Below, one piece after another: positions 25,862-43,105 of a stretch of 64,000 nucleotides of DNA. A program made the translations under genes and the position numbers. Source of the stretch: Bacteriovoracia bacterium (GTDB lineage Bacteria; Bdellovibrionota; UBA1018; CAIPTA01); the NCBI GenBank assembly GCA_050246755.1, contig JBFWVL010000001.1, positions 1,728,001 through 1,792,000 on the forward strand. Reading direction: 5' to 3'. Position 1 is the first letter of the stretch, and each line of letters opens with the position of its first letter. A model generated the notes under the pieces. That model searched no databases and had not been told where the DNA came from. It saw only the letters and a list, made by a program, of their open reading frames with translations.

Positions 25862-26191
25862 TCTAGTCTATGGGTCTCAAAGGGGTCGGCAGTCGCGTTC
25901 TGAGAAGCGACATTTCATGCACGTTTGCATAGTACTCTCAGTTGGCGGGGAATTCTTGATAAACCCTTGTCAGGATTCCACACCCAATAAAATCTATGGT
26001 TTAAAGGTTACATTAAGGAAATAACGCAATGCGCGAATATTAATTACATAGTTATGATGCAGATGCTTTTGTCAAAAGTTCAAGAATTATCTGGCACTCC
26101 ATTTGGTTCTTGTTAGCATTATTTTACTAATTCGTTAGGGCCAACGTTCAGGGATTTGAAAGTCGGCGTGAATCTACATGGAGGAATTTGT

Positions 26192-27901
26192 ATGAAGTCA
26201 GCAGGAATCGCATGGTCCTTAGCAGTTATCGGTGCCGCCGGTGCCGGATTGTTCACTGGGCTCGACAATAACGCACATTCAGATATCGCAAAATTTACGA
26301 CCCAGCTTGCGCAACACGAGCGCGTGCCCGGCGAAGTAATCGTAAAGATGTCGCGCCAGGGTAAAACCCTCGCCGTGAATTCTTTGCTCTCGCAATTCAG
26401 TATCTCCTCCATGAACGCTTTCGAAACGAACAACAGCTTTTATAAAGTGAAGCTCGCGCGCGATTCCGATACGGCGCAATTCCTCGAGGCCGCTTCCCAC
26501 AATCCTTCCATCGAATACGCCGAACCCAACTACATCATGCATGTGCTTGGTTCCGAAGATTCTGAAGTGCTTCCTAACGACTCCGATTTCGACAAGCTCT
26601 GGGGCATGAAGAATATCGGCCAAAAAGATTCCGCTGGTACCGTTGGGGTTGCCGGCGCTGATATCGGTGCTACCAAAGCCTGGAAAACCACCACGGGTAA
26701 TAAAGACATCCTCGTGGCCGTGATCGATACCGGCGTGGACTATACCCACCCCGATCTCAAGGACAATATCTTCGTGAACGCGGGCGAGATCGCCGGTAAC
26801 GGCATCGACGACGACGGCAACGGTTTCGTGGACGACGTGCATGGCTGGAACTTCGCCGGCGTTTCCACCAACGATCCTATGGATGATAACGAGCACGGTA
26901 CTCACGTATCGGGCACGATCGGCGGCAAAGGAAATAACGGATTGGGCGTAGCCGGTGTGAACTGGACCACCTCCATCCTTCCCGTGAAATTCCTCACCGG
27001 CGCGGGCAGCGGAACCTTGGAAGACGCCGTGAAGTCGATCCAGTACGCGACCCTCATGAAAGCCAAAGTGATGAACAACTCGTGGGGCGGCGGTGGTTTC
27101 ACCCAGTCTCTCTACGACGCGATCGCGGGCGCCAAAGCCGCTGGTTTGCTCTTCGTAGCGGCCGCCGGTAACGATAGCCAAAATGCCGATTCTAGCCCGC
27201 ACTATCCCGCCGGCTACCAGATCGACAACGTGATCGCCGTTGCGGCCACCACCAACCAAGATACGCTCGCTAGCTTCTCCACCTACGGAAAGCGCACCGT
27301 GCATATCGCGGCCCCTGGCCACAAGATCTACTCCTCCGTTCCGGGCAATAAGTACGATTCCTTCAGCGGAACCTCGATGGCCACTCCTCACGTAGTGGGC
27401 GCCGCGGCTCTTCTCTGGGGAACCGATACCAGCATGACCTATGCTCAAGTGAAAGAACGTCTCTTGGCTTCCCGCGATTTCATTCCTTCGCTCTCGCGTA
27501 AGGTGGCATCGAGCGGCCGCTTGAACATCTACAATGCGATCAACGGGATCTATCCTCCTTCTCCGGAACCAGCCGAGAGCGCTTGGCGTGATTTCGCCTT
27601 CCAAGGCACCGTAGAATCGGAACACCCTTACGCGAACTCCGCGAAGCAAGAGTGGTCGATCGAGGGCCCCGCCGATGCGAAGTTCATGCGCGTGGTATTC
27701 TCGAAGGTTGACCTCGAGAGCGGCTACGACTTCGTAAAAATCTACGACGCTTCGGGCGCCGAGATGGATGCCGTGTCCGGCAAGAGCGATAACCAGACTT
27801 CGTTCTACGTAACCGGCAACAAAATGACCCTGAAACTCACCTCCGACTCCAGCATCAACAGCTGGGGCTTCGCGGTGGGCAAGGTTCAAGTAGTTTATTA
27901 A
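26192..27901 (+). CDS. Secreted S8 subtilase with prodomain and C-terminal CUB domain
   Basis: VIDTG, HGTHVSG, AAGN, GTSMATPHV; C-terminal ESEHPY...DLESGYDFV...FAV CUB-like domain; GGAGG RBS before ATG 26192. Confidence 0.93.
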   Translation: MKSAGIAWSLAVIGAAGAGLFTGLDNNAHSDIAKFTTQLAQHERVPGEVIVKMSRQGKTLAVNSLLSQFSISSMNAFETNNSFYKVKLARDSDTAQFLEAASHNPSIEYAEPNYIMHVLGSEDSEVLPNDSDFDKLWGMKNIGQKDSAGTVGVAGADIGATKAWKTTTGNKDILVAVIDTGVDYTHPDLKDNIFVNAGEIAGNGIDDDGNGFVDDVHGWNFAGVSTNDPMDDNEHGTHVSGTIGGKGNNGLGVAGVNWTTSILPVKFLTGAGSGTLEDAVKSIQYATLMKAKVMNNSWGGGGFTQSLYDAIAGAKAAGLLFVAAAGNDSQNADSSPHYPAGYQIDNVIAVAATTNQDTLASFSTYGKRTVHIAAPGHKIYSSVPGNKYDSFSGTSMATPHVVGAAALLWGTDTSMTYAQVKERLLASRDFIPSLSRKVASSGRLNIYNAINGIYPPSPEPAESAWRDFAFQGTVESEHPYANSAKQEWSIEGPADAKFMRVVFSKVDLESGYDFVKIYDASGAEMDAVSGKSDNQTSFYVTGNKMTLKLTSDSSINSWGFAVGKVQVVY

Positions 27902-30010: not shown

Positions 30011-30228
30011 GGAGCCCCCCGTTTGGCGTGAGCGAGTTTTATAATCAGAACGGATTGGGGGGTCAATGCGAGAGGCGGGGGTGAGGCATTTCGGGGGGCT
30101 AGGGGATTCCGGGTGAGATTTGGGAGGGATGAAGACAAAAACCGGTAAAATCCCAGCACAATCAAAGAGATATGCTCACCACCAAATCCCTTTTCTTGCG
30201 CCGTGCGGAACGTTACTATTTTCGTCCG

Positions 30229-31260
30229 ATGGACGGTGACTTTTACAAATCCCACTTAGAACGCGTGAGCAGGAGCTTTTCCTTCTGCATCGCCCAGCTC
30301 GACGGTGATTTCCGCAATTGGGTGAGCCTTTCTTACTTACTTTGTCGCATTCTAGATACGGTTGAGGATGCAAATTGGGCCAAGCCCGAACAACAGGCGG
30401 AAGCCTACCTTCGTTTCCAGGAATTCTTAGATCGTTCCGTGCCTCCCGCCCGCGTGAAGGCCTGGATTGAATCCTTTCCCGCGGGCATCTCCGAGGGAGA
30501 GCGCTTGCTCATCGTAGACGCCGGCGGCGCCTTCGAGCGGTTCCATGCTTTACCCCAGAGTATTCAGGCGATGATGCGTTCTTCGATCCTCAATATGTAC
30601 CGGGGCATGAACTATTTTTCCCGCGAGCGCAAAGAAGGCAGCGCGATCCGGCTGCGTGATCTGCCCGACGTGAATCAGTACTGTTTCTTCGTGGCGGGCG
30701 TGGTGGGAGATTTGCTCACCAATCTTTTGGCCGGGGCTTCGGGCAAGGCCGTGGATCCCTCGCATTTGCTGGATGGCCACCACTTCGGGCTTTTCCTGCA
30801 GAAGGTGAATTTGCTCAAGGATCAGGCGGAAGACGAAAAGCAGGGCCGCCACCTCGTGGTGCCTTCGCGGGAAGCATTGCTGGCGAGCGTGAAGGCGAAT
30901 GCCGAGGGCGCGATCCGTTACCTTACGGCGATACCGGTAAAGGAACGCGGGTACCGGATTTTTTGTGCCTGGTCGCTGTTCTTGGGGCTTTCTTCGTTGC
31001 GCTGGATGGAGAGATCCACGTTCTTTGGCCACGTGTTCATGAATAAGCCGCCCCGTATTTTTACCAAGTGGAAACTCAAGCGGGTAAAAGACCGGATCGA
31101 CGATAACGAGGCTCTCGTGGAATTTTTCCGGCAATGCTTGCCTGCTTTTCCCGCCGTAAACGAGCCGGGCTTGGAAAAAAAAGAGCTGGCTTCTACCTCT
31201 TTGCAGGCTTACCAGGGCCCTCTGGAAGGATCACAGTTCCGTGCCCTAGGGATGATCTAA
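30229..31260 (+). CDS. Squalene synthase (eukaryote-like single-enzyme type)
   Basis: VSRSF flap, ILDTVEDA, YCFFVAGVVG, FGLFLQKVNLLKD, RIFCAW, matching farnesyl-diphosphate farnesyltransferase motifs. Confidence 0.88.
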   Translation: MDGDFYKSHLERVSRSFSFCIAQLDGDFRNWVSLSYLLCRILDTVEDANWAKPEQQAEAYLRFQEFLDRSVPPARVKAWIESFPAGISEGERLLIVDAGGAFERFHALPQSIQAMMRSSILNMYRGMNYFSRERKEGSAIRLRDLPDVNQYCFFVAGVVGDLLTNLLAGASGKAVDPSHLLDGHHFGLFLQKVNLLKDQAEDEKQGRHLVVPSREALLASVKANAEGAIRYLTAIPVKERGYRIFCAWSLFLGLSSLRWMERSTFFGHVFMNKPPRIFTKWKLKRVKDRIDDNEALVEFFRQCLPAFPAVNEPGLEKKELASTSLQAYQGPLEGSQFRALGMI

Positions 31261-31381: not shown

Positions 31382-32545
31382 ATGGGGAATACAATGCTCG
31401 TACTGCTCGGATTTTCTGCCCTGCTGCTTTTTTCCACCACGCTCTACCAAATCACCACCGTTTGTTTGCTCCTGCGCCGCCAGGCGAGGAAGCGCGCGCT
31501 GTCTCAGTCCCCCTCTGCTATCCGCGAGTTTCCCGGGATTTCCGTTTTGATTCCCGTGAAAGGAATTTATCCGACCTTCGGCGGAAACCTGCGCTCGATT
31601 TTTGAGCAGGATTATCCGGGGCCTATCGAAGTGATTCTGGGGGTGCAGTCCGAGAGCGATCCCGTGCTGGAGTTTTCCCGCAAGGTAGCGAGCTCGCTGG
31701 GAAAAGGCGATAAGATTCACTTCGCGGTGGGCGGGAAAGACGCGGGCCTCAACCCAAAAAATTCCAATCTTTGCCGCGCTTTTCCTAAAGCCAAGTACGA
31801 CTGGCTCTACTGCTGCGATTCCGACGTGGCCCTCGAGCCTTCGTTTTTTCTTAATGCGATCGCGGTGCTCGACGAAAATACCTACGGCTCCACCTTCAAT
31901 ATTTTCCGCCAGGCGCCGAATCTGGGCGCGATGCTCGAGGGCGTGGGCACGAACACCGAGGCTTCCGCATTTTTCCTCCTCGCGGCGTTAAATCCCGCCA
32001 AGGGCGTGATGAACGGCGCCTCAATGATTTTTCATCGGAGCCTGCTGGCCCGGGTGGGCGGCTTCGAGGTGGCGCTGAATCAGATCACCGACGATCTCTA
32101 CCTCGCTAATAAATTTAACGGGCTCGGTGCCCGGTTCGCGCTTTTGCCCAATAATGTGGTGGAGCATATTCCGGCGCAGTCTTTTTCCGTTTTCTGGAAC
32201 CGCGTTCTGCGTTGGCTGTTGATCGCGCGCTGCAACCGCAAAGATCTTTTCTACGGCGCGCCCACGAGCTGGGTATGGCAATGGAACTTGCTGATGCTGC
32301 TGGTTACCTGCGATTCCCGCTTCCTGCTTCTCTTCGGAGCCGCGCTGGCTGGGCGCCTCCTGTTCTCGATGATTTTTCAGGGAACGCTAGCCGGATGGCG
32401 TGAATGCTGGAAGGTGATCGTGATCCCGATCTACGATTTGCTGGGGCCCGTGGCCTGGACTATCTCCCTCTTTACGAAAAATATCGTGTGGGCCGGGAAC
32501 GAGCTGATCGTGAGTTCGAGTGGTACTTTGGAGCACAAGAAGTAA
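31382..32545 (+). CDS. GT21/HpnI-like (ceramide glucosyltransferase family) glycosyltransferase
   Basis: N-terminal TM, SVLIPVKG, GLNPKNSNL, CDSDV, TDD, RVLRW, C-terminal TMs and IVWAG; stop abuts the cyclase start. Confidence 0.85.
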   Translation: MGNTMLVLLGFSALLLFSTTLYQITTVCLLLRRQARKRALSQSPSAIREFPGISVLIPVKGIYPTFGGNLRSIFEQDYPGPIEVILGVQSESDPVLEFSRKVASSLGKGDKIHFAVGGKDAGLNPKNSNLCRAFPKAKYDWLYCCDSDVALEPSFFLNAIAVLDENTYGSTFNIFRQAPNLGAMLEGVGTNTEASAFFLLAALNPAKGVMNGASMIFHRSLLARVGGFEVALNQITDDLYLANKFNGLGARFALLPNNVVEHIPAQSFSVFWNRVLRWLLIARCNRKDLFYGAPTSWVWQWNLLMLLVTCDSRFLLLFGAALAGRLLFSMIFQGTLAGWRECWKVIVIPIYDLLGPVAWTISLFTKNIVWAGNELIVSSSGTLEHKK

Positions 32546-34444
32546 ATGGCCTATAGCCCCGCAATGAAAACCGCGATCGCTAAAGCGGAAGATTTTCTGC
32601 TCGCTGCCCAGAACAAAGATGGCTCCTGGATCGGGGAGGTGGGCCTCAATCCCGGGCCTACGGCCCAGGCGGTGATGCTCTACGCGAGCCTGCAGAAAAA
32701 ATTCCCGGCTTCGGTGGCACCGAAGGCGAAGCAGTATGTGCTGCGCACCCAAAATCCCGACGGGGGATGGAGCACGCATCCTGGTGCGCCCAGCGAGGTT
32801 TCGCTTACCTGTGAATGCTACGTGGCGCTACGGCTCTTGGGAGTGCCTGCATCCGATCCCGTTTGCGCCAAAGCGCGGAGCGTGATCGAAGCGGCGGGGG
32901 GAACGAGCGCGGCCAATCCCTGGACCCAGCTTTATCTTGGCATCCTGGGAGTTCTTCCTTGGGAAAAAATCCAAATCATTCCCATCGAGCTCGTGCTCCA
33001 GCCCGCATTTTCACCATTTTCGATCGAGCATCTAGCCTACTGGGTGAGGGTGATCACGGTGCCGATGATGCTCGTGGGCGCAATTGGCCCTTATCCGCTC
33101 GCGAAAATGGCGGGAGAGCTGGCCGAAGAACTCTCCACCGAAAATTTCGACTCGCGAAGAAATATGGGGATGATCGGAAAAATCATCGCGAAGTGCGCCG
33201 CCGTGGCGGGCCACGTGGGAGTGCCCGGGCTGCGCGCAGTGGCGATTAAAAAATCCCTGGAGTATATCCGCAGCTGGACCGAGAAACACGGCGACTTCGG
33301 CGGCAATACTTGCACTGCGATCAACGTGATCGTGGCGTATTCGAAAATCGGCGAACATGAAGAGGAAGTGCGCAAAGGGCTCGAAGCGTTCATGAGCTAC
33401 GCGATCGAGACGGAGGAGGAATGGCGCCTGCAAACCTGCCAGAGCCATGTCTGGGACGCGGCCTTCGTGATGCAGGCTTTGCGCGGGGAAAACCCCAGTG
33501 CGAAGGTAAAGGCCGCGCTCGAGCGCGGAGCGGAGTGGCTTACCGATCGCCAGATCGTGAAAACGCGCGGGCCCTGGAGCAAGAACGTGAAGGCCGCCCC
33601 GGGGGGGTGGTGTTTCGGGAATCGCCACGAGCATTTTCCCGTAACCGATTGCACGGCGGTTTCGGTTTTGGCGCTGAAAGATACCGTGCCCGATTATTGG
33701 AATACCCGCGGCTCCCGGCTCGCGGTGGACTGGCTCGTGGGGATGCAGCACGGCACGGGCGGCTGGTCGGCCTACGAAAAATTCGAGCGCGGCGAGCTCC
33801 TCAACCGCCTGGTGACGTTCAAGGATATTCCCGATGCCCTTGTGGATCGCCCGAAGGCCGACGTTTCGGCCAAGGTAGTGGAGGCGCTCTGCGCGGCAAG
33901 GCCCTGGCATCCGGAGCTTCATTCCGTATTGGCCGATGCCCGGGCCTTCCTGCTCGCGAAACGGGAAACTTCCTACCAGGTTTGGCGGGGGAACTACGGA
34001 ATAAATTATATTTATGGAACATCCTTCGCCGCCAAGGCTTTGCGGGCCATCGATGGGCATCCCAGCGTGGACTGGGCTCCCGCTGTGCTGCGCTTTTTCT
34101 TGAATCGCCAGAACGGAGATGGGGGCTGGGGTGAGAGCGACGCCAGCTACTTTCATAAGGAGAAGGCGGGGTACGGGCCCTCCACGGTTACCCAAACGGC
34201 CTGGGCTCTATTGGGTCTTATTCACGCGTTGGATCCGTCAAACCCCCCTAAAGAGGCCTTAAAAGCGATTAAAAATGGGGTAGAGTACCTGCTTAAAAAA
34301 CAGGAGGAAGCCGGCAATTGGACCGAGGAACTGTCTTTGTGCACGGTTTTTCCGGGCATGGTTTACTTCCACTACGAATTTTATCCCGTGGTATTTCCGC
34401 TGCTCGCTTTGCGCGAAGCGGGCAAAATACTGGCAGCTCACTAG
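32546..34444 (+). CDS. Class II triterpene cyclase (SHC-like scaffold, oxidosqualene-cyclase-type VTDCTA motif)
   Basis: QW repeats (QNKDGSW, QNPDGGW, QHGTGGW, QNGDGGWGES, QEEAGNW), SHVWDAAF, GGWCF...PVTDCTAV, GINYIYGT, VFPG. Confidence 0.93.
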   Translation: MAYSPAMKTAIAKAEDFLLAAQNKDGSWIGEVGLNPGPTAQAVMLYASLQKKFPASVAPKAKQYVLRTQNPDGGWSTHPGAPSEVSLTCECYVALRLLGVPASDPVCAKARSVIEAAGGTSAANPWTQLYLGILGVLPWEKIQIIPIELVLQPAFSPFSIEHLAYWVRVITVPMMLVGAIGPYPLAKMAGELAEELSTENFDSRRNMGMIGKIIAKCAAVAGHVGVPGLRAVAIKKSLEYIRSWTEKHGDFGGNTCTAINVIVAYSKIGEHEEEVRKGLEAFMSYAIETEEEWRLQTCQSHVWDAAFVMQALRGENPSAKVKAALERGAEWLTDRQIVKTRGPWSKNVKAAPGGWCFGNRHEHFPVTDCTAVSVLALKDTVPDYWNTRGSRLAVDWLVGMQHGTGGWSAYEKFERGELLNRLVTFKDIPDALVDRPKADVSAKVVEALCAARPWHPELHSVLADARAFLLAKRETSYQVWRGNYGINYIYGTSFAAKALRAIDGHPSVDWAPAVLRFFLNRQNGDGGWGESDASYFHKEKAGYGPSTVTQTAWALLGLIHALDPSNPPKEALKAIKNGVEYLLKKQEEAGNWTEELSLCTVFPGMVYFHYEFYPVVFPLLALREAGKILAAH

Positions 34445-34576: not shown

Positions 34577-35992
34577 ATGTTGAAGCTAAAGCTGTTGATG
34601 TTGCTTACCGTAGGTTCCACCGCGCTCGCCGCCAATTCCTTCGCTGGAGTTATATACGATAAAGGCGGGATGCCCCGCTGTATCTCGATGGAAGGAAGAG
34701 ACCTCCTTCTCCTCTGGGATGCATCAGACCTCTACTCCCGGGAGATCTATACCCTCGACACCGGTACCTATACGGCCCGCGATACCATGAATCCGCAGAC
34801 CTATAACTGCCACAGCTTGCCCGCGAAGCTGAGCGAAGTGCCAAAATCTGATTTAACCGTTCTCGCCAAAGGCGCCAAAAGCGTGGGCCCATTCAGCCTG
34901 GCCAGCGCCCGCATGCAGAAATCCTTAGACCAAATTCGCAATGGCGCTACCGCCTACCGCGAAGAAACCGACGCAAAATCCTTCCTGCGCAAGTACCCCA
35001 TTTCGAATTTCACGCTCGAAACCAACCGCCGGCTCACCGCGATGTATGGTGTGGGCTTCGTTTCCGAGATCTACGCCGAGATCATCGCCAGCGACCCAAA
35101 CAACAAGGCATTCTCCGATTTGATCAACGGCAACCTTCGTTCCCAGGCTTCCGATCTGGCCGCCGTGAAAAAGAATCGCACCGTGATCTACGTGAAAGGA
35201 ATCGGCCACGAGCTGAACAATTCCAAGCAGTACGATGTGTTCGTGGATAATCTCCGCAAAGGCGGCGTGGAAGTGAAAATCGTGAAAACTCACTCTTGGG
35301 ACACGATCGATACGAACGCCGCGATCGTGAAGAGAGCGCTCGAGATCGAGCTCAAGAAAGGCAAAAGCCTGATCTTGATCGGCCTTAGCAAGGGCGGCTC
35401 GGAATCCCTCCTCGCGCTTTCTATGCTTAGCAAGACTCTCGATGCGAAGCCCGCTGGCTACGGAAAAGTGGAAGCCTACCTCGGCCTCTCGGGCGTATAT
35501 GGCGGATCTTTCCTTGTGGACTGGGCCGGCAGCCTTCCCCAGCGCTTGATCATGAGTCATCTCATGAAAGACGAATATGAAAAAGAAGGCAAGAAGCTGC
35601 CCACGATCGACGGAATCCTCGACGTGAAATCCGAACCCGTGGCCGACGTGATGAAGCAAGTAGCCCATAACGGCTTGCCCCAGGAAACCACTTATTTCAG
35701 CATCGTGGGCGCGATCACCGGCGATGGTCTCGCCGCTAAAACTTCCTATATTCGCAGCTTGCAGCAAGACATCATCCGCGCGCAGCTCGACGGCTACGGC
35801 GCGAACGATGGATACATCGAGTATCCCGGAACCGCGGTACCGAAAAAATTAGTGAAGAAGTCCTATATCGGTAGCTTGAATGCGAGCCATTCCCTTGTGG
35901 ACGGCACGTACCAAGGGCAGCCGGTGGTGGGTGGCCCGGAAAACGTAGTGAACGCCATCTCGATGGCCGTTTTCCAGATTCTCGCAAAGTAA
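34577..35992 (+). CDS. Secreted alpha/beta-hydrolase (lipase/acyltransferase-like)
   Basis: Signal peptide ending SFA; oxyanion segment YVKGIG, nucleophile elbow GLSKGG, NDG, ASH. Confidence 0.75.
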   Translation: MLKLKLLMLLTVGSTALAANSFAGVIYDKGGMPRCISMEGRDLLLLWDASDLYSREIYTLDTGTYTARDTMNPQTYNCHSLPAKLSEVPKSDLTVLAKGAKSVGPFSLASARMQKSLDQIRNGATAYREETDAKSFLRKYPISNFTLETNRRLTAMYGVGFVSEIYAEIIASDPNNKAFSDLINGNLRSQASDLAAVKKNRTVIYVKGIGHELNNSKQYDVFVDNLRKGGVEVKIVKTHSWDTIDTNAAIVKRALEIELKKGKSLILIGLSKGGSESLLALSMLSKTLDAKPAGYGKVEAYLGLSGVYGGSFLVDWAGSLPQRLIMSHLMKDEYEKEGKKLPTIDGILDVKSEPVADVMKQVAHNGLPQETTYFSIVGAITGDGLAAKTSYIRSLQQDIIRAQLDGYGANDGYIEYPGTAVPKKLVKKSYIGSLNASHSLVDGTYQGQPVVGGPENVVNAISMAVFQILAK

Positions 35993-36035: not shown

Positions 36036-37427
36036 ATGTCGAACGTTGTTAATAAGAATAGTCCTGACTTTTTGATCGTTGGCGCTAGCATCGCGGGCAC
36101 CGCCCTGGCGGTTGGTCTCAGAGAAAAAGGTTTCAACGTGATGCTGATCGAGCGCGAAGCTTCGCCCCGTGAGCGCTTCAAGGGAGAATTTCTCCAGCCC
36201 TTCGCCGTGAAACAATTCACGAAGCTAGGCTTCGGCGATCTCTTCCACGCCGAAGGCACCCAGAAGATCCGCGAATTGAAATTCCGCGATCTCGACAAGG
36301 ACAATAACGTGGTGAGCGAAGTACTCGTGCCCTACCTGGGCCAAGATTTTGCCGCCGTGGTTCCCCATAAAGATTTGATCACCGGCCTCCAGAAGCGCGC
36401 CACCGAGCTTTTAGGCGAAAGCTTCCTACTCGGCACCACCGCGGAACCGCTGAACCAAGCTGACGCCGATTTTCTAGAGCACCCACGCTTCCTGATCAAG
36501 CGCGAAGGCCAAGAGTCCTTCGAGATCTCACCCCGTTTCGTGATCGGCTGCGACGGACGCCAGTCGGCGGTTCGTTCCTGGATGGGGGGCCCCAAGGCTC
36601 CCGCCATGGGTTCGCCCACCTTCGGCACCCAGCCCGAATTCATCGTGGGCGCCGAGCTTCACGGCAAACGTCCACTCCCTTGCCGTTACGAAGTGATCCG
36701 TACCGCGGGCCAAGGCACAATCGCGCTTTTCCAAACCCGGCCGGAATCGCAGCGCCTCTACTGGAACGCGCTCGCCGTTCCCGGTTCGAATAAAAAAACC
36801 TGGGAGAGCTCGCTCCAGAAGATCGTTCCCGAGCTGAAAGAGCTGGCCGACCTCGATTCCTCCGACGTGGAGAACGTAGCTGGCAGCCCCGCCGACCAAG
36901 TCTGGTTCGGCCCCGCCGCGAAATCGAACTTCTTCCTCGTGGGTGACGCGCTCGCCGTTACCTCTCCGCTCGGCGGACAGGGCATGACCTGCGCCATGCG
37001 CGAAGTGGAATCTCTTCTCCAGAGTTTCCAGCAGTACGTTGATGGTGTTTCTACCCTCGGCGAAGTACGGGAAGACTACTCTTCGCTCGCCCGCTCCACC
37101 TACTACCATATCTGCCTGCTGAACTTCGGCCTCTACTATCTCTTCTACGCCTCGGGCCGTATGTTCAAGCTCGTTTCCCGCTTCATTCTCGGGGAATGGA
37201 ATAAGCATCCCGAAATTTGCGCTCGCGTGGGCGCGCTCTTCAGCGGCATGAGCTTCGACACTCCCGGCCTCGGTGAGCTTCTCCGTCTTTGGGGAATCCT
37301 ATCCTGGGTACAACCCGCCGCCCACAAGCCGGCTCCTCGCAAATCCTTCATCGGCGCCGCGCTCTACCGCCGCCGTTATACGGATGCGCGCGAGCAGCAC
37401 CGCGCCAATAAAGCGCACTCCGCGTAA
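36036..37427 (+). CDS. Squalene epoxidase-like FAD-dependent monooxygenase
   Basis: IVGASIAG, RFKGEFLQP (cf. SQLE RIVGELLQP), GCDG, GDALAVTSPLGGQGMT (cf. GDAxNxRHPLTGGGMT), LYYLF; located in a squalene synthase/cyclase cluster. Confidence 0.85.
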   Translation: MSNVVNKNSPDFLIVGASIAGTALAVGLREKGFNVMLIEREASPRERFKGEFLQPFAVKQFTKLGFGDLFHAEGTQKIRELKFRDLDKDNNVVSEVLVPYLGQDFAAVVPHKDLITGLQKRATELLGESFLLGTTAEPLNQADADFLEHPRFLIKREGQESFEISPRFVIGCDGRQSAVRSWMGGPKAPAMGSPTFGTQPEFIVGAELHGKRPLPCRYEVIRTAGQGTIALFQTRPESQRLYWNALAVPGSNKKTWESSLQKIVPELKELADLDSSDVENVAGSPADQVWFGPAAKSNFFLVGDALAVTSPLGGQGMTCAMREVESLLQSFQQYVDGVSTLGEVREDYSSLARSTYYHICLLNFGLYYLFYASGRMFKLVSRFILGEWNKHPEICARVGALFSGMSFDTPGLGELLRLWGILSWVQPAAHKPAPRKSFIGAALYRRRYTDAREQHRANKAHSA

Positions 37428-37451: not shown

Positions 37452-37486
37452 GGGGCCGAACTTTGGTTCGGCCCCTTTTTCTTTTT
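37452..37486 (+). terminator. Intrinsic terminator after the squalene epoxidase
   Basis: GGGGCCGAAC-TTTG-GTTCGGCCCC followed by TTTTTCTTTTT. Confidence 0.92.
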
Positions 37487-37642: not shown

Positions 37643-38968
37643 ATGCCTTTTTCCGCCCCCCGAAAAGCAAAATCGCTTTCGCTCATTTTATTGAGCTGCG
37701 CGCTTTGCCCGGCGGCGGACGCGGCCCGGCCGATTTTAACGCCGCGAAAGGCCGCACCGCTGCTGATCTACGATATTGGGCTCGAATTGTGGGGCGCAGG
37801 CGGCGCACGCTCGCTCGCGAAAACCCCGGTGAATCCGGACAATCTCGTGGCGCGTATTCCGGAAACCGCGCTCACGGCGGAAGCGCGGCCAGACGTGCGC
37901 CTCCGCGTGAAAAAAGCCCGCGTAACGGCGCGGCCCCGCCTAATCTATACGCAAAACAATACGAAATCGGGCGCGGCCAAAACCACCAAGAACGTGGGCC
38001 GGATCCAGTGGAGCGAAGCCTACGCCTCGCTCGACATTTCGGATACGCTAGCGCTCGCCTACGGGTTGCAAAATTACCAGTGGGGCCCTTCTGAGTCGGC
38101 GAGCCCCAGCAATAGAATTTTCCGCGATACGGTAGAGGCCAAAGACGTGCTCTACGTAGTAAAGGGCAAACACCTCGTGCGCGTGAATTTTACTCCTCGG
38201 CCGGGGTGGAGCGAAGTGGCGCTCTTCGAAGTTTCCACGAACGGAAGCCCGGAATACGAAGCCCAGGAAAAGTTCGCCCAGAAGGCGCTCCTGAAATCGG
38301 AGTATTCCTGGGGCGGGGGCGCGGATTATGCCGGCATCGTTACGGGCTGGAGAAACCACGATGGGCTCTGGATCGGAGAGTACTTTAATTCCGACGTCTA
38401 CGAAGGCCTTTCGCTTTTTTTCGATATCAGCCACCAGATGGGAAGCCTGGCGTACTATCCCGTGGATAATTCCGGCGTCACCGTTCTTTCCCAGGCGCAT
38501 AAGTCCGATAAGAAAATTTATACCTTCGCCACCTTCGGCGGCCACTACGCGTTCGTGAACGGAATCGATCTCCGCTTCGAGGGAATTTTTCAGGAAGCCG
38601 GTTACAGCAAGAAACAAGTGCAGTCGGTATGGAACGCCCTCGCTTCGAACGTGCCGCAGCAGCAGGTTTTCTTCGCCATGAACTCGGCGCTGGCGTACCA
38701 GAACGGGCTCGAGTTTCCCGGGCAGAAATATCTATTCTCCTCCGTGCGCTATCCGAATTTTTTGAACGTGCGGAACTGGACGCTCTACGCGCGCGGCCTT
38801 CTTTCGCTGCAGGATTCCTCGAGCTCGGCCTTTCTGAGCTCGGAAAACGCCGTGGGCCAGCGCGGAACGATTTTCGCGAGCGTAGCCGCCTTCTCGGGAA
38901 AAATGGATTCGGAGCTGCGGGGCCTCGTGGCCTACGCGGGAATATTGGGGTACCGGCATGCCTGGTAG
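37643..38968 (+). CDS. Putative outer-membrane beta-barrel protein
   Basis: Signal peptide, alternating aromatic beta-strand pattern, C-terminal YRHAW; first gene of the ABC operon. Confidence 0.7.
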   Translation: MPFSAPRKAKSLSLILLSCALCPAADAARPILTPRKAAPLLIYDIGLELWGAGGARSLAKTPVNPDNLVARIPETALTAEARPDVRLRVKKARVTARPRLIYTQNNTKSGAAKTTKNVGRIQWSEAYASLDISDTLALAYGLQNYQWGPSESASPSNRIFRDTVEAKDVLYVVKGKHLVRVNFTPRPGWSEVALFEVSTNGSPEYEAQEKFAQKALLKSEYSWGGGADYAGIVTGWRNHDGLWIGEYFNSDVYEGLSLFFDISHQMGSLAYYPVDNSGVTVLSQAHKSDKKIYTFATFGGHYAFVNGIDLRFEGIFQEAGYSKKQVQSVWNALASNVPQQQVFFAMNSALAYQNGLEFPGQKYLFSSVRYPNFLNVRNWTLYARGLLSLQDSSSSAFLSSENAVGQRGTIFASVAAFSGKMDSELRGLVAYAGILGYRHAW

Positions 38969-38974
38969 GAGTGA

Positions 38975-39655
38975 GTGATGAGCAAGTCGATCATAAAATT
39001 GGAAAATATTTCGAAGGATTACCGCATGGGTCAGATCCGCGTGCCCGCGCTGAAATCCGTGAACCTGGATATTTTCGCCGGTGAATTCACCGCCGTGATC
39101 GGAGCTTCCGGCTCGGGCAAGAGCACGCTGCTGAATATGATTGGCTGCATCGATCAGCCCGATACCGGGAAGATCTTTCTCGACGGCGTGAATATCATTC
39201 CCCTGAGCGACGATAAGAAGAGCGATCTCCGGAACCAGAAAATTGGATTTATTTTTCAGTCGTTCAATCTCGTGCCGGTGCTTTCGGTATTCGAGAACGT
39301 AGAGCTTCCGCTGCTCATCAATCCCGCCATCTCGGCCGAAGACCGCAAAAAGCGCGTGCTCCAGGCCATCGACGATGTGGGTCTCCAGGCGTACGCCAAA
39401 AATCTTCCCGATCAGCTCTCGGGAGGGCAACGCCAGCGCGTGGCGATCGCCCGCGCCCTGGCCGGCAATCCCGTGCTGGTATTAGCCGACGAGCCTACCG
39501 CCAACCTCGATTCGGATTCTTCCAACAAGATCCTCGATCTGATGATCGATCTCAACTCCAAGCGCGGGATCACCTTTCTCTTCTCCACCCACGATGAAAA
39601 GCTGATGAAGCGCGTTTCCCGTATCATTCACATCAAAGACGGGGTGGTTGGCTGA
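38975..39655 (+). CDS. ABC transporter ATPase (LolD/MacB-like)
   Basis: GASGSGKST, IGFIFQSFNL, LSGGQRQRVAIARAL, ADEPTANLD, STHD. Confidence 0.96.
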   Translation: MMSKSIIKLENISKDYRMGQIRVPALKSVNLDIFAGEFTAVIGASGSGKSTLLNMIGCIDQPDTGKIFLDGVNIIPLSDDKKSDLRNQKIGFIFQSFNLVPVLSVFENVELPLLINPAISAEDRKKRVLQAIDDVGLQAYAKNLPDQLSGGQRQRVAIARALAGNPVLVLADEPTANLDSDSSNKILDLMIDLNSKRGITFLFSTHDEKLMKRVSRIIHIKDGVVG

Positions 39656-41010
39656 TGTGGCAGTTCTGGTTCCTTTCCCTTAGAAACCTTCGTCGCAATT
39701 CCAAGCGGAATCTCGCCACGGGCTGCGCGATCGCGTTCGGTTTCTGCGGGATCCTGCTTTTGCAGGCCTACGCCTTTCGCGTGGAGAATTTTCTGCGCGT
39801 GCACACGCTCTACTCCCTGCACACTGGACATATCGTGTTGCTCGCGGACCAGGGCTTCGATAAATTTCGCTATAATCCCCGCAAGTATAGCCTCACGCCC
39901 GAAGACCAGCGCTTCATCCTGAACGCCTTGAAAGACGAGGCCGGGATCGAGGCGGTGGAGAAGCAAATCACCGGGCAGGGTCTGCTGGGGAACGGCTGTA
40001 TCTCGCTGCCGTTCATAGCGCGGGGATTAGAGCCCGCGGTCGACAAGATCCTCCGGGCGCACCCGCAAGTAAAGGAATGGATGCCCAACCAAAAATTCCT
40101 GAAATCAGGGCAGGGGCTTTCCGATTCTAAGGCAGGTGAAGGCCTACTCCTGAGTTTGGGGCTGGCTACGGCGCTAGGCAAAACCACGATGCTCGGCGAT
40201 ATTCCGCCTGGTGCGCCGATTACGCTCGTGGATTGCGCGGCTCCCGACGTGAAGGAGCAGCTGAAAAAAGATTCCAACGTGCAGCTGCTTTCCGGCACTT
40301 GGCGGGGAGCAATGTCGGCGGTGGATGGAGAAGCCATCGGAATCTTCCAGACCGGGTTCCAGGAAGCCGACAATTCCGCCATTTTGGCCGACGTGGCCTT
40401 GCTCCAAAAATTGTTCGATACCGAGAACGTGGAGAGAATTTCGGTCTGGCTTAAAGACGATAAAAAAATCCCCGAGCTTTCCAAAAAACTAAACGAAAAG
40501 TTCGCCGCCGCCGGGAAGAAATATGATCTCGTTTCTTGGAATGAAGAACGGCTTTCCCCTTACTATTTCGGCTCGAAGCAATTTCTCGACACTCTTTCGG
40601 CCTTCGTTTCGATGATCCTCGCCGCGGTGATCGCCCTCTCCGTGCTCAATTCCACCACCATGACGATCATGGAACGTTCCCAGGAAATCGGCATGTACCG
40701 CGCGATGGGATTCCGCCGCCGGCAGGTGCGACGCCTTTACCTGCAGGAATCGCTGCTGCTCTCCTTGATTTCGCTCGGGGTGGGCACGCTTCTAACCATC
40801 GCGGTGATCCTGGCCATCAATTCCGCCAATATTGTTTACTATCCGCCTGGTGTCTCAAACGGGATGGTCCTTCGTTTCGTGCTTAACGAAAGCTCTGCGG
40901 CGAAGGCCGCGGGGATGATCCTAGTCCTGGTTTTATTGGCTACGTTCATGGCGGTTTCTAGCCGGCTCCGGCAAAAACCCGCTGACTTATTGGGAGGTAC
41001 TTTACGATGA
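39655..41010 (+). CDS. ABC transporter permease (FtsX/LolE/MacB-like)
   Basis: LRNLRRN...TM, large periplasmic domain, ERSQEIGMYRAMGF, three C-terminal TMs. Confidence 0.92.
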   Translation: MWQFWFLSLRNLRRNSKRNLATGCAIAFGFCGILLLQAYAFRVENFLRVHTLYSLHTGHIVLLADQGFDKFRYNPRKYSLTPEDQRFILNALKDEAGIEAVEKQITGQGLLGNGCISLPFIARGLEPAVDKILRAHPQVKEWMPNQKFLKSGQGLSDSKAGEGLLLSLGLATALGKTTMLGDIPPGAPITLVDCAAPDVKEQLKKDSNVQLLSGTWRGAMSAVDGEAIGIFQTGFQEADNSAILADVALLQKLFDTENVERISVWLKDDKKIPELSKKLNEKFAAAGKKYDLVSWNEERLSPYYFGSKQFLDTLSAFVSMILAAVIALSVLNSTTMTIMERSQEIGMYRAMGFRRRQVRRLYLQESLLLSLISLGVGTLLTIAVILAINSANIVYYPPGVSNGMVLRFVLNESSAAKAAGMILVLVLLATFMAVSSRLRQKPADLLGGTLR

Positions 41011-41777
41011 TCCGGTTTCTTATGGTTTTTTTCCTCAGCGTTTCCGCCATCGCCGCTTCGGGCCCTAAGGGCAAAGCTCCGGCTAAAGGAGAAGGTGTGA
41101 ATGCGCTCGAGCTTCTTAAGGTGAGTGACCGCGCACGCGGAGCCGCCGCCGCGCTCCAGGGCGTGAGCTGGACTTCCCAGGTGAAATCCGTGGAGGCCGA
41201 TGAGGAAAGCAGCGTAACCTACGCGATCAAGATCCGTGGGAACGACGCGCTCGCCGAAGCCATCGATCCTCCCCGCCAGAAAGGAGAGCTCGCGCTCTTC
41301 AACGACCGCACACTCTGGTTTTTTAAGCCGGGCCTGAAGAAACCCATTAGCATTTCTCTACGCCAGAAGCTCATGGGCCAGGCGGCAAACGGCGATATCG
41401 CTTCCACGCAGTACGCCCGCGACTACGAACCCGTTTCCACGAAGCAGGAAACCATCAACGGACACCTGGTTTGGCTCCTCGATCTCAAGGCGAAAGCCAA
41501 GAACGTGACCTACGACCGCATCCGTTACTGGATCACCGATAAAGAGAAGCTCGCCGTGAAAGCGGAGTTCCTCACCGTTTCTGGCCAGGTTTTTAAGATC
41601 GCGGAATTCAAGTATGGAAACACGATCGTGCTCAAAGGCACCAAGTTTCCTTTCGTGGGCGAGATGAAGATTCGCGACGCGAATAATCCCAAGAACGTGA
41701 CCACCATCACTTATAGAAATCCCCGGGAAGAAGCGCATGCTCCGAGCCTTTTCAACGTGAACAACTTGGTAAAGTAA
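41007..41777 (+). CDS. Outer-membrane lipoprotein-sorting (LolA-like) protein
   Basis: Signal peptide; P.RQKGE, LWFFKPG.KKPISIS.RQKLMGQAANGDIA, YDRIRYWI. Confidence 0.85.
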   Translation: MIRFLMVFFLSVSAIAASGPKGKAPAKGEGVNALELLKVSDRARGAAAALQGVSWTSQVKSVEADEESSVTYAIKIRGNDALAEAIDPPRQKGELALFNDRTLWFFKPGLKKPISISLRQKLMGQAANGDIASTQYARDYEPVSTKQETINGHLVWLLDLKAKAKNVTYDRIRYWITDKEKLAVKAEFLTVSGQVFKIAEFKYGNTIVLKGTKFPFVGEMKIRDANNPKNVTTITYRNPREEAHAPSLFNVNNLVK

Positions 41778-41779
41778 GA

Positions 41780-43105
41780 ATGTATACCTCGCGGAAACTA
41801 TTGATGCTCAAGCTGGCATCGAGAAATATCTTCCTGAACTGGCGCCATAGCTTGGCCACCGTGCTTGCGATCATGGCGGGCTTTACCTCCGTGGCGCTGC
41901 TGGACGGATTTATTTCCGCGATCAACGAAGTTTCTCAGGATGGCACCGTGAACAAGGGAATGACCGGGCATTTCTTGCTGGAAAAGCGCGGAGCCAAAGA
42001 TCATCTCTTCGAAGATCCTTGGCTCTATTCGCTGAGCAAAGAAGAGCAGGATAAAGTTTCGGGATGGCTTGAAGGTGATAAGCGCGTGAAAGCTTCGATG
42101 CGCTACCTCACGCTCAGTGGTCTCATTTCCAATGGGAAGAACTCGGCGATCTTCATTGGCGCCGGCATCGACGAAGCGCGCGGCCTGAAATTCCGCGGGG
42201 ATAAGTGGGCCTGGAATACCGTGGCCGGGAAACCTTTCTACCTCGATAATTCCGGATTCCAGATGGGCGTGGGTATGGCCACCCGGATGGACTGCAAGTT
42301 CAGCGAAAAGTACGACCTCAATAAAGACGGCTCCTATAAGGCCGAAGAGAGGCCGCTGGAATGCGCGAATCCCGTATTTCAAATTTCCGCTACCACGGAG
42401 CATGCTCAAGTGAACGCGCTCACGTTGAGCCCCACGGGCCTCGTGGATCTGCATATCCGAGAATACAACGATAAGATCATCTACTTGCCCCTCACGGCGG
42501 CCCAACAGCTCCTCGATACCGACCGGATCACTCGGTTCTCGGTACTGCTCAACGATGAAGGCACACGAAACGCCTTTGTTCGCGATTACGAAGAGAAAAT
42601 TAGGGCCTCGGGACTGGATCTTGAGGTCGTGCACTGGCTCGATCACCCCGTGGGCTCGGCTTCCAAAGGCGGGATGGCAGTGTTGAACATGTTCCGTTGG
42701 CTCTTCCTCACGATCGTGGCGGTGGTGGCCGTGATGTCGGTGGCTAATTCGCTGATGAAGAGCATCAACGAGCGGATCCGGGAGATCGGTACCCTGCGCA
42801 GCTATGGCTTCCGGCGTACCGATATCGTTCTTCTATTTTCGTTTGAAGGTCTGCTGCTGGGGTTCTTCGCCTGCCTGTTGGGAATAATCCTGAGTTCCGC
42901 CCTGGCTTTTGCGATTTCCAATGGAGGAATGACGTTCAATGCCGGCGTGATGAGCACGCCGCTGGCCATCAAGATCGATCTCGCGCTGGGCGTATGGGCA
43001 GGTTCTTCCTTCGTGCTGTGCCTGGTAACGTTCCTGGCTTCCTGGATTGTTTCCCGCCGGGCGGCGAAGATGACGATCGCCGATGCCTTACGGCATATCG
43101 CCTAA
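41780..43105 (+). CDS. ABC transporter permease (FtsX/LolE/MacB-like)
   Basis: ASRNIFLNWRHS...TM, ERIREIGTLRSYGF, C-terminal IADALRH. Confidence 0.92.
   Translation: MYTSRKLLMLKLASRNIFLNWRHSLATVLAIMAGFTSVALLDGFISAINEVSQDGTVNKGMTGHFLLEKRGAKDHLFEDPWLYSLSKEEQDKVSGWLEGDKRVKASMRYLTLSGLISNGKNSAIFIGAGIDEARGLKFRGDKWAWNTVAGKPFYLDNSGFQMGVGMATRMDCKFSEKYDLNKDGSYKAEERPLECANPVFQISATTEHAQVNALTLSPTGLVDLHIREYNDKIIYLPLTAAQQLLDTDRITRFSVLLNDEGTRNAFVRDYEEKIRASGLDLEVVHWLDHPVGSASKGGMAVLNMFRWLFLTIVAVVAVMSVANSLMKSINERIREIGTLRSYGFRRTDIVLLFSFEGLLLGFFACLLGIILSSALAFAISNGGMTFNAGVMSTPLAIKIDLALGVWAGSSFVLCLVTFLASWIVSRRAAKMTIADALRHIA

Follow-up and report, generated by a model that had tools for sequence, protein, structure and literature searches.

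When sterol cyclases arose from squalene cyclases, did the substrate (to an epoxide) or the stereochemistry (to a boat B ring) change first? This question is raised by a triterpene cyclase gene in a 64,000-nucleotide stretch of DNA (the window; forward strand of contig JBFWVL010000001.1, positions 1,728,001 to 1,792,000) from a Bacteriovoracia bacterium (assembly GCA_050246755.1; genome G000). An initial annotation of the window had described the product as a squalene-hopene cyclase (SHC) scaffold with the catalytic motif of an oxidosqualene cyclase (OSC), arising by convergence or surviving as an SHC-to-OSC intermediate. The sequence features tested assign the enzyme to a family of about 30 living cyclases, termed PVTDC, that is a member of neither the OSCs nor the SHCs. 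On balance, we favour a reading in which these enzymes would be oxidosqualene cyclases making a non-sterol 3-hydroxy triterpene, with a history as sister group of the OSCs. The features at issue are:

32546..34444, + strand: type II triterpene cyclase, 632 aa, two-domain fold, PVTDC-family member (Pfam SQHop N- and C-terminal domains)
33641..33661, + strand: VTDCTAV catalytic motif, cyclase residues 366-372, DNA GTAACCGATTGCACGGCGGTT (translation and alignment)

The motif is read directly from the translation. V366, D368 and C369 align with D374, D376 and D377 of the A. acidocaldarius SHC (D374-V-D376-D377-T-A-V), and the motif also aligns to the DCTAE of a plant OSC. The DxDD of SHC is not present; VTDC stands in its place, and the alignment puts D368 at the catalytic acid position, SHC D376. 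V366 corresponds to OSC V453 and C369 to OSC C456 (D455 and C456 in human numbers). Sequencing error or a one-off mutation as the source of VTDC is ruled out, as P365-V-T-D-C369 is unchanged across all 27 aligned family rows. Residue equivalences throughout come from sequence alignment, SHC numbers being counted from the aligned A. acidocaldarius enzyme; human numbers 232 and 503 are from PMC12414744, and 453 is from PMC4919349.

As a whole, the protein reaches the cut-off of neither group-specific model. It passes the cut-off of the general cyclase model (TIGR01787, 412 bits); it scores 398.6 bits against the SHC model TIGR01507 (cut-off 431.1; relatives 258-419 bits) and 261 bits against the OSC model TIGR03463 (cut-off 851; full-length Polyangia OSCs 646-913). 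The AlphaFold model (pLDDT 89.8) retrieves SHC at E 1.7e-37 and human OSC (1w6k) at E 2.2e-31 in Foldseek; the predicted likeness to the A. acidocaldarius SHC (PDB 1gsz/3sqc) extends to fold (TM 0.86-0.88), length and about 31% identity. The other motifs quoted in the initial annotation (YWVRVITVP, DRPKADVSAKVVEAL, GINYIYGT and FPGMVY) are each found in the translation. Its use of the 632-aa length as an SHC mark fails to discriminate, bacterial OSCs in the tree of Hoshino & Gaucher (2021, PMC8237579) being labelled 627-690 aa.

The family is separate from ordinary SHCs (about 34% identity). A homology search returned 26 relatives at 42-54% identity and then a drop to ordinary SHCs at 32-35%, among the best 120 of 337 matches; a profile search of 1.84 billion representatives added one more distant member (P0121) and fragments. 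A cyclase match occurs in 27 of 127 genomes of the host class. Seven carry a PVTDCTA cyclase (G000, G046, G047, G050, G051, G060 and G095; four genera). In 18 others every cyclase is DxDD or DxDV, and two more give weak or partial matches; none of the order's 10 other searched genomes has a cyclase. On the family profile, the next best scores (400-465 bits) belong to DxDD SHCs of the same class. Across the phylum, a DNA pattern matched 13 times in 401 genomes, six of the matches being known family cyclases, with a reversed control about as frequent; the same kind of search in metagenomes gave eight matches, five to non-cyclases and three to cyclase loci. Among the matches listed from a contig scan of genomes there were ordinary SHCs only and no PVTDC-family member, and these were kept as named references. 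A search aimed at Planctomycetota outgroups returned only high-scoring SHC-type matches, which were not used, and atlas searches yielded nothing more specific than generic SHC and FAD-oxidoreductase clusters.

Judged by alignment, the active site mixes features of both groups: its initiation residues are of OSC type, a Trp and an Asp are of SHC type, and His232 is missing. The diagnostic positions are:

33041..33043, + strand: W166, the SHC-type Trp (SHC W169) at OSC His232 (W in 13/13 family and 25/25 SHC rows; H in 17/18 OSC rows)
33773..33778, + strand: Y410-E411, an OSC-type pair at the OSC Y503 position, where most SHCs have F-D (Y in 13/13 family, 18/18 OSC and 3/25 SHC rows)
33860..33874, + strand: D439-V440-S-A-K443, with SHC-type D447/V448 (OSC E-C) and Lys replacing SHC His/Arg451 (alignment)
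33995..33997, + strand: Y484, a family-specific Tyr at SHC W489 (Y in 13/13 family rows; W in 18/18 OSC and 25/25 SHC rows)
34346..34363, + strand: V601 at SHC G600, where OSC is one residue shorter, and V606 at SHC F605 (alignment)

Relative to the A. acidocaldarius enzyme, the cyclase has equivalents of W169, W312, F365, D376, D447, Y609 and Y612, whereas it carries the changes D374 to V, D377 to C, H451 to K, W489 to Y, G600 to V, F605 to V and E45 to Q, and one extra residue between F434 and D442. Across the family, the cavity aromatics W169, W312, F365, F601, Y609 and Y612 are kept, and W489 and F605 are replaced by Tyr and Val in 13/13. Residues held in common with OSCs are V366, C369, L134, M174, L177, F307, Y410-E411, F494 and V549, with W126 in 69% of rows; those of SHC type are W166, D439-V440, G342-x-W344, W396 and P603. 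W166, D439-V440 and V601 occur in 13/13 family rows, so that His232, the E-C533 pair and the G600 deletion of OSCs are all missing, and the motif ends in TAV or TAL rather than TAE. Family-only states are K443 for H/R451, Y484 for W489, GGNTC/GGNPY for GGIQP, Q41 for E45 and V606 for F605. Two further states look intermediate, depending on the alignment: family G-T-V-F against SHC G-T-G-F and OSC G-V-F, and a loop whose length exceeds that of SHC by one residue and falls short of that of OSC by one. The description of the rest of the protein as SHC-like holds in part: of 28 columns that separate OSC from SHC, 10 have the SHC state, nine the OSC state and nine a state of their own. Deletion of G600 in SHC reportedly, from the title of a cited work, switches the enzyme to (3S)-oxidosqualene.

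Mutant SHCs bear on what these residues may do. In a table row of PMC9634032, the triple mutant D377C/V380E/V381A converts oxidosqualene to mono- and pentacycles. The initial annotation had argued that loss of two of the three Asp residues leaves the enzyme too weakly acidic to protonate an alkene; this argument is weaker than stated, since SHC D377C alone still cyclizes squalene to the monocyclic 3-deoxyachilleol (in the accessible part of PMC6127371) and K443 keeps a basic residue at SHC H451. Some residual squalene activity is therefore possible. The initial interpretation is partly supported, and the proposed use of oxidosqualene gains strong support from context: the likely partner, an epoxidase-like gene, lies in the same cluster.

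Five co-directional genes of the window, ending at a terminator-like hairpin, make up this cluster:

30172..31260, + strand: squalene synthase (SQS), eukaryote-type (Pfam SQS_PSY; best PDB matches squalene synthases, E 2e-13)
31382..32545, + strand: GT21 / HpnI-like glycosyltransferase (PF13506, E 2.7e-27; TIGR03472, 173 bits, below the cut-off of 310)
32546..34444, + strand: the cyclase
34577..35992, + strand: 471-aa protein whose start resembles a signal peptide; contains G-x-S-x-G as GLSKGG (unmatched in Pfam and NCBIfam)
36036..37427, + strand: FAD monooxygenase, squalene-epoxidase-like (best PDB match human SQLE, E 4e-16)
37452..37485, + strand: terminator-like hairpin, 10 pairs, 8 of them G-C, with a T run (consensus match only)

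The squalene synthase gene is the sole SQS/PSY gene found in G000. The monooxygenase carries RFKGEFLQP where human SQLE (6c6n) has RIVGEFLQP, and its likeness to squalene monooxygenases (SQMOs, including bacterial ones; 22-28% identity) comprises R-x-x-G-E-x-L-Q-P, GD..P..G.GMT, the C-terminal helices and the best PDB sequence match. It founds a family of about 40 proteins. A 37-row profile of this family has SQLE as its best solved relative (125 bits; next 83), and Pfam SE is matched by 23 of the 37 members, the cluster's own protein scoring 21.6 bits against a cut-off of 20.1.

Distribution ties the two genes together. Within the class, the monooxygenase occurs in 7/127 genomes, exactly the seven with a PVTDC cyclase, always on the cyclase locus (7/7) and head-to-head in five of the seven; the 18 class genomes in which all readable cyclases are DxDD or DxDV lack it. 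Two of the three metagenome cyclase loci also have it. Eight pairs of cyclase and monooxygenase homologues share an identical longest-contig size, an indirect sign of linkage, although one pair duplicates G060. In Polyangia, matches to the flavoprotein occur solely in genomes that also have an OSC (5/5). By comparison with SHCs, then, the cyclase is linked to an epoxidase-like gene and not to hpnH/hpnG, and the class's DxDD cyclases, unlike it, sit in hopanoid (hpn) operons.

Where, then, does the family branch? In a FastTree of 295 rows and 611 columns (leaving out rows below 540 aa, most cyanobacterial SHCs and duplicates), 31 family rows, united with support 1.0, branch from the stem that separates 41 OSCs from every SHC-side row. 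A curated set of 76 ingroup rows (13 family, 18 bacterial OSC, 25 SHC, 4 STC-like, 5 SqhC and 11 divergent), with five outgroups, gave the same union. In fast searches, the SH-like approximate likelihood ratio test (SH-aLRT) supports family plus OSC at 93.5 with all columns, 94.2 without the motif, 89 without active-site columns, 92.8 with residues 7-295 alone, 88.9 with the C-terminal half without the motif, and 100 once the 11 divergent rows are removed. It stands at 92.6 under LG+C20 with posterior mean site frequencies (PMSF) and no active-site columns, and at 91.2 with an ultrafast bootstrap of 99 in a full search with the five outgroups. The family alone and the OSCs alone each attach at the same place, outside all SHC, STC and SqhC rows, and with three outgroup sets the root never falls between them. 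When the family was regrafted on 96 branches, the position sister to OSC was best (bootstrap weight 0.83); in 20 selected placements it had weight 0.78 under C20 and 0.93 under LG with only the motif removed, and it was best in all three approximately unbiased (AU) test runs. Nesting among SHCs is found in no best tree.

Canonical OSC identity was rejected: placements inside OSC cost 152-206 log-likelihood units (AU <1e-4), so that the outcome named in the initial annotation as fatal to its proposal, nesting among canonical OSCs, did not occur. Origin from the class's own DxDD SHCs was likewise rejected, as these are sister to the family in no tree (AU 0.016 and 0.002 in the 20-placement runs, though 0.086 in the 96-branch run). 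By these trees, the family probably falls outside the OSC crown as well as the core SHCs and is the sister group of every OSC sampled. Between the two histories first proposed, they favour descent from the SHC-to-OSC stem as a side branch that has survived, and convergence is less favoured.

The monooxygenase has a tree of its own (72 rows, 394 columns), in which its family forms a clade (SH-aLRT 99.9) outside the SQMO clade (99.8) and is not nested within it. Cyclase and flavoprotein could be a co-inherited pair, older than the last ancestor shared by all OSCs and SQMOs now known, that served pre-sterol, oxygen-dependent synthesis of all-chair 3-hydroxy triterpenes, a proposal to which we give slightly less than an even chance.

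Several observations weigh against the favoured reading. The trees are without eukaryotic OSCs and epoxy-polyprenyl cyclases; the root is otherwise unstable among SHC-side rows, and outgroup rooting did not fix it. Ten of the 96 regraft placements survived the AU test, none of them inside OSC. Long-branch attraction may lie behind the union, because the joint stem is short (0.12-0.16 substitutions per site under LG, 0.25 under C20; the OSC stem is 0.74-0.79 under LG) and has a long branch on either side, and the family and the OSCs each attach next to the long row P0264. The seven PVTDC genomes include four of one genus, hence four genera only. The union of the monooxygenase family with SQMOs has an SH-aLRT of only 47, a non-SQMO row (P0320) being the sister of the family, and in Foldseek the top match is a PHBH-type hydroxylase, with SQLE next at a similar E-value, although SQLE has the highest query TM-score. 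Linkage also has exceptions: L159 shows no monooxygenase in the 7 kb downstream of its cyclase, upstream being cut, and G347, of another class, has the monooxygenase (L269, G347:C36:105636-106907, at a contig end) with only a DVDD cyclase.

One rival reading is convergence, in which the family came from within the SHC radiation, perhaps from a divergent group with a loosened third Asp (DxDC, DxDT, DxDV), recruited an epoxidase-like flavoprotein and gained VxDC independently, with the same chemistry (oxidosqualene to hopanol or another triterpenol) and a different history. The divergent SHC group (L107, L110, P0204, P0237, P0250) survives as a placement, with AU 0.28 in the 96-branch run, 0.24 under C20 and 0.069 under LG; in the 20-placement runs P0146 also survives and most core-SHC placements are rejected. 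On the SHC side, three rows (P0146, P0204 and P0211) also have C for D at the end of the motif, the distribution is patchy, and the scaffold is closer to SHC (25 conserved sites common to SHC only, 10 to OSC only; mean family identity 31% to SHC, 26% to OSC). Oxidosqualene-only enzymes are, moreover, described within the SHC crown: the hopanol synthases HM163/HM164 (McShea 2025, in the accessible part of PMC12414744). Like the PVTDC enzymes as proposed here, these are SHC-like proteins that use oxidosqualene and not squalene, whereas by their description they keep DxD[D]. The sister-to-OSC signal, however, persists without the motif or active-site columns and in the motif-free half; the class's own SHCs fare poorly as a source; there are OSC-type residues well away from the motif; and the monooxygenase branches outside the known SQMOs, whereas one recruited recently might be expected to nest among them. 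We consider convergence unlikely, though it keeps an appreciable share of our belief.

A different substrate is improbable. The flavoprotein might epoxidise or hydroxylate some other isoprenoid, be it a squalene diepoxide, a polyprenyl chain or a cyclic product; alternatively, the cyclase might weakly protonate squalene and stop at a monocycle, the product type of the D377C mutant; the retained K443, the replacement of W489 throughout the family, the low identity and weak placement of the monooxygenase, and its presence in G347 apart from any PVTDC cyclase all leave room for this. Against it stand the adjacent squalene synthase in G000, SQLE as the clear best sequence match of the flavoprotein, Val at the D374 position as in OSCs, and the Polyangia matches that coincide with OSCs. 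A true sterol or arborinol synthase, folding its substrate chair-boat-chair despite an SHC-like cavity, is less probable still. V366 matches V453, in bacteria a mark of lanosterol synthases (PMC4919349, in part), Y410 matches Y503, and the family is sister to OSC; but His232, the E-C pair and the G600 deletion are all missing, nesting among OSCs is rejected, and no P450 was found in G000.

The oxidosqualene pathway that we prefer would be oxygen-dependent and lead to a triterpenol. Squalene synthase would make squalene from mevalonate-derived farnesyl diphosphate, and the flavoprotein would epoxidise it to 2,3-oxidosqualene; an epoxide as the cyclase substrate is, from motif and linkage, quite likely. 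D368 would then open the epoxide, aided by C369 and possibly K443, and cyclization would proceed in an SHC-shaped cavity (W166, F357, W303, D439; no His232 and no Cys533 equivalent). The product would be a 3-hydroxy triterpene, most likely non-sterol, to which in some hosts GT21 may add a sugar at the 3-OH. In evolutionary terms, DxDD would already have become VxDC when the family left the OSC stem, and His232, the E-C pair and the G600 deletion would have arisen later.

The W166, D439, F605 and W489 positions have roles in shaping the product. Because W166 and D439 are present and F605 and W489 are lost, an all-chair and probably truncated non-sterol product is expected. With SHC F605, W489 and G600 all replaced, a truncated chair-chair-chair tri- or tetracycle is the leading candidate, if a tentative one; a hopanol-type pentacycle is somewhat less likely, and a protosteryl-derived sterol or arborinol is doubtful, as is, to the same degree, any other outcome. 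G000 (95.7% complete) has mevalonate genes, and tblastn with one query each gave no match to HpnH, HpnG, HpnD or HpnE in it. As no P450 was found either, sterol tailoring and extended hopanoids are unlikely in this host, and the 3-OH is a plausible sugar acceptor.

A squalene-using cyclase appears to be available separately in G000, which has a second cyclase, L082, on C2 (G000:C2:26710-28599, - strand, 629 aa, PDVDDTS; best model TIGR04277, tetrahymanol-type, 371 bits against a cut-off of 500). Proteins related to L082 group together (G050, G053, G054, G055 with two copies, G071, G079 and G105; G347 has a similar one), and this clade, close to eukaryote-type STCs, could be their source.

The stop codon of the GT21 gene abuts the cyclase ATG (gap 0 nt), and a GT21 homologue adjoins the cyclase in G000, G095 and L158 only. 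In L158, an acyltransferase-domain gene of 2-oxoacid_dh type lies between the two (L158:1215-1991), which suggests acylation of the cyclase product in that host. The 471-aa protein had no match in Pfam or NCBIfam, and its best PDB match is at E 0.74; its GLSKGG stretch is lipase-like. A homologue at 27-28% identity lies within the same L158 locus (L158:3702-5741), so that this gene accompanies the cluster in two loci. Consensus hairpins like the one closing the cluster number 17, against 11.7 expected in shuffles. G+C and third-position G+C of the cluster genes are like those of neighbours and give no sign of recent transfer.

Around the cluster, the + strand carries a subtilase with a C-terminal CUB domain (26156-27901), an ordinary secreted protease, and, directly after the cluster (37643-43105), an unannotated 441-aa protein, an ABC ATPase, two FtsX-type permeases and a LolA-like protein. 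This Lol-like transport module was not seen at the other cyclase loci examined. At L130, L132, L133 and L155, an outer-membrane-factor-like gene and an RND pump gene come next after those for cyclase and monooxygenase, often accompanied by a TetR-like regulator and a short-chain dehydrogenase/reductase (SDR); such neighbours may possibly export or oxidise the cyclase product. G000 has a similar TetR/RND pair away from the cluster (C1:525902-530954).

The accessible parts of the literature supply neighbouring cases. Myxobacterial 'OSC-like' proteins, listed from myxobacteria and one BRC1 row, were proposed as remnants of the squalene cyclase-to-OSC passage, are without XXDC and were judged unlikely to cyclize oxidosqualene (Hoshino & Gaucher 2021, PMC8237579); SQMOs beside undefined SHC-like enzymes were noted in myxobacteria (Santana-Molina 2020, PMC7306690). 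The PVTDC family resembles these in its proposed position, and some of them adjoin SQMO genes as it adjoins an epoxidase-like gene, but it has XXDC; L238-L240 of Polyangia, taken as that group, have no such motif and do not group with it. L238 and L240 encode motif-less homologues (LDLGAT, LDLRAT) directly adjoining SQMO-clade genes. On the SHC side, degenerate motifs (DLDC, DSDT, DVDV, NCAV, DTDV) are scattered in the tree (P0146, P0204, P0211, P0237, P0250, P0264, L107), and their sequences make these cyclases candidates for other substrate switches. The second cyclase of another genome in the class has a 25-residue stretch in common with a published sequence labelled Bdellovibrionales, and G000 combines mevalonate genes with SQS, as reported for that group, 'not known to produce steroids' (PMC8237579); both point to a class that probably lies in Bdellovibrionota, among Oligoflexia in the wide sense.

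No description of the PVTDC family was found in the literature searched, most subscription papers lying outside its reach. The accessible parts of PMC4919349, PMC6127371, PMC9634032, PMC7232578, PMC11951148, PMC13556965 and bioRxiv 2025.07.29.667474 hold no account of it, and its N-terminal motifs were not found in roughly the first 400 columns per row of the 1,139-sequence alignment of McShea. It could be an unremarked branch in a published tree; it is real and conserved and seems to be undescribed.

The family bears on a transition for which published work left the ancestral substrate unresolved (McShea 2025, in the part of PMC12414744 consulted) and found a resurrected OSC ancestor inactive (Hoshino & Gaucher 2021, likewise in part). 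A living family that combines an XXDC motif with an SHC-like cavity breaks the long OSC stem, supplies direct assay targets and would improve ancestral reconstruction, so that the SHC-to-OSC transition becomes testable by routine expression assay. If convergence is true, nature has made the SHC-to-OSC switch a second time in this family, which would supply new biocatalysts. If cyclase and flavoprotein are instead a co-inherited pre-sterol pair, epoxide use preceded the chair-boat-chair fold, and hosts thought to be without oxidosqualene products do make them. The product may be a new oxygen-dependent bacterial lipid, with a bearing on how biomarkers are read, and the family could show how sterol synthesis arose.

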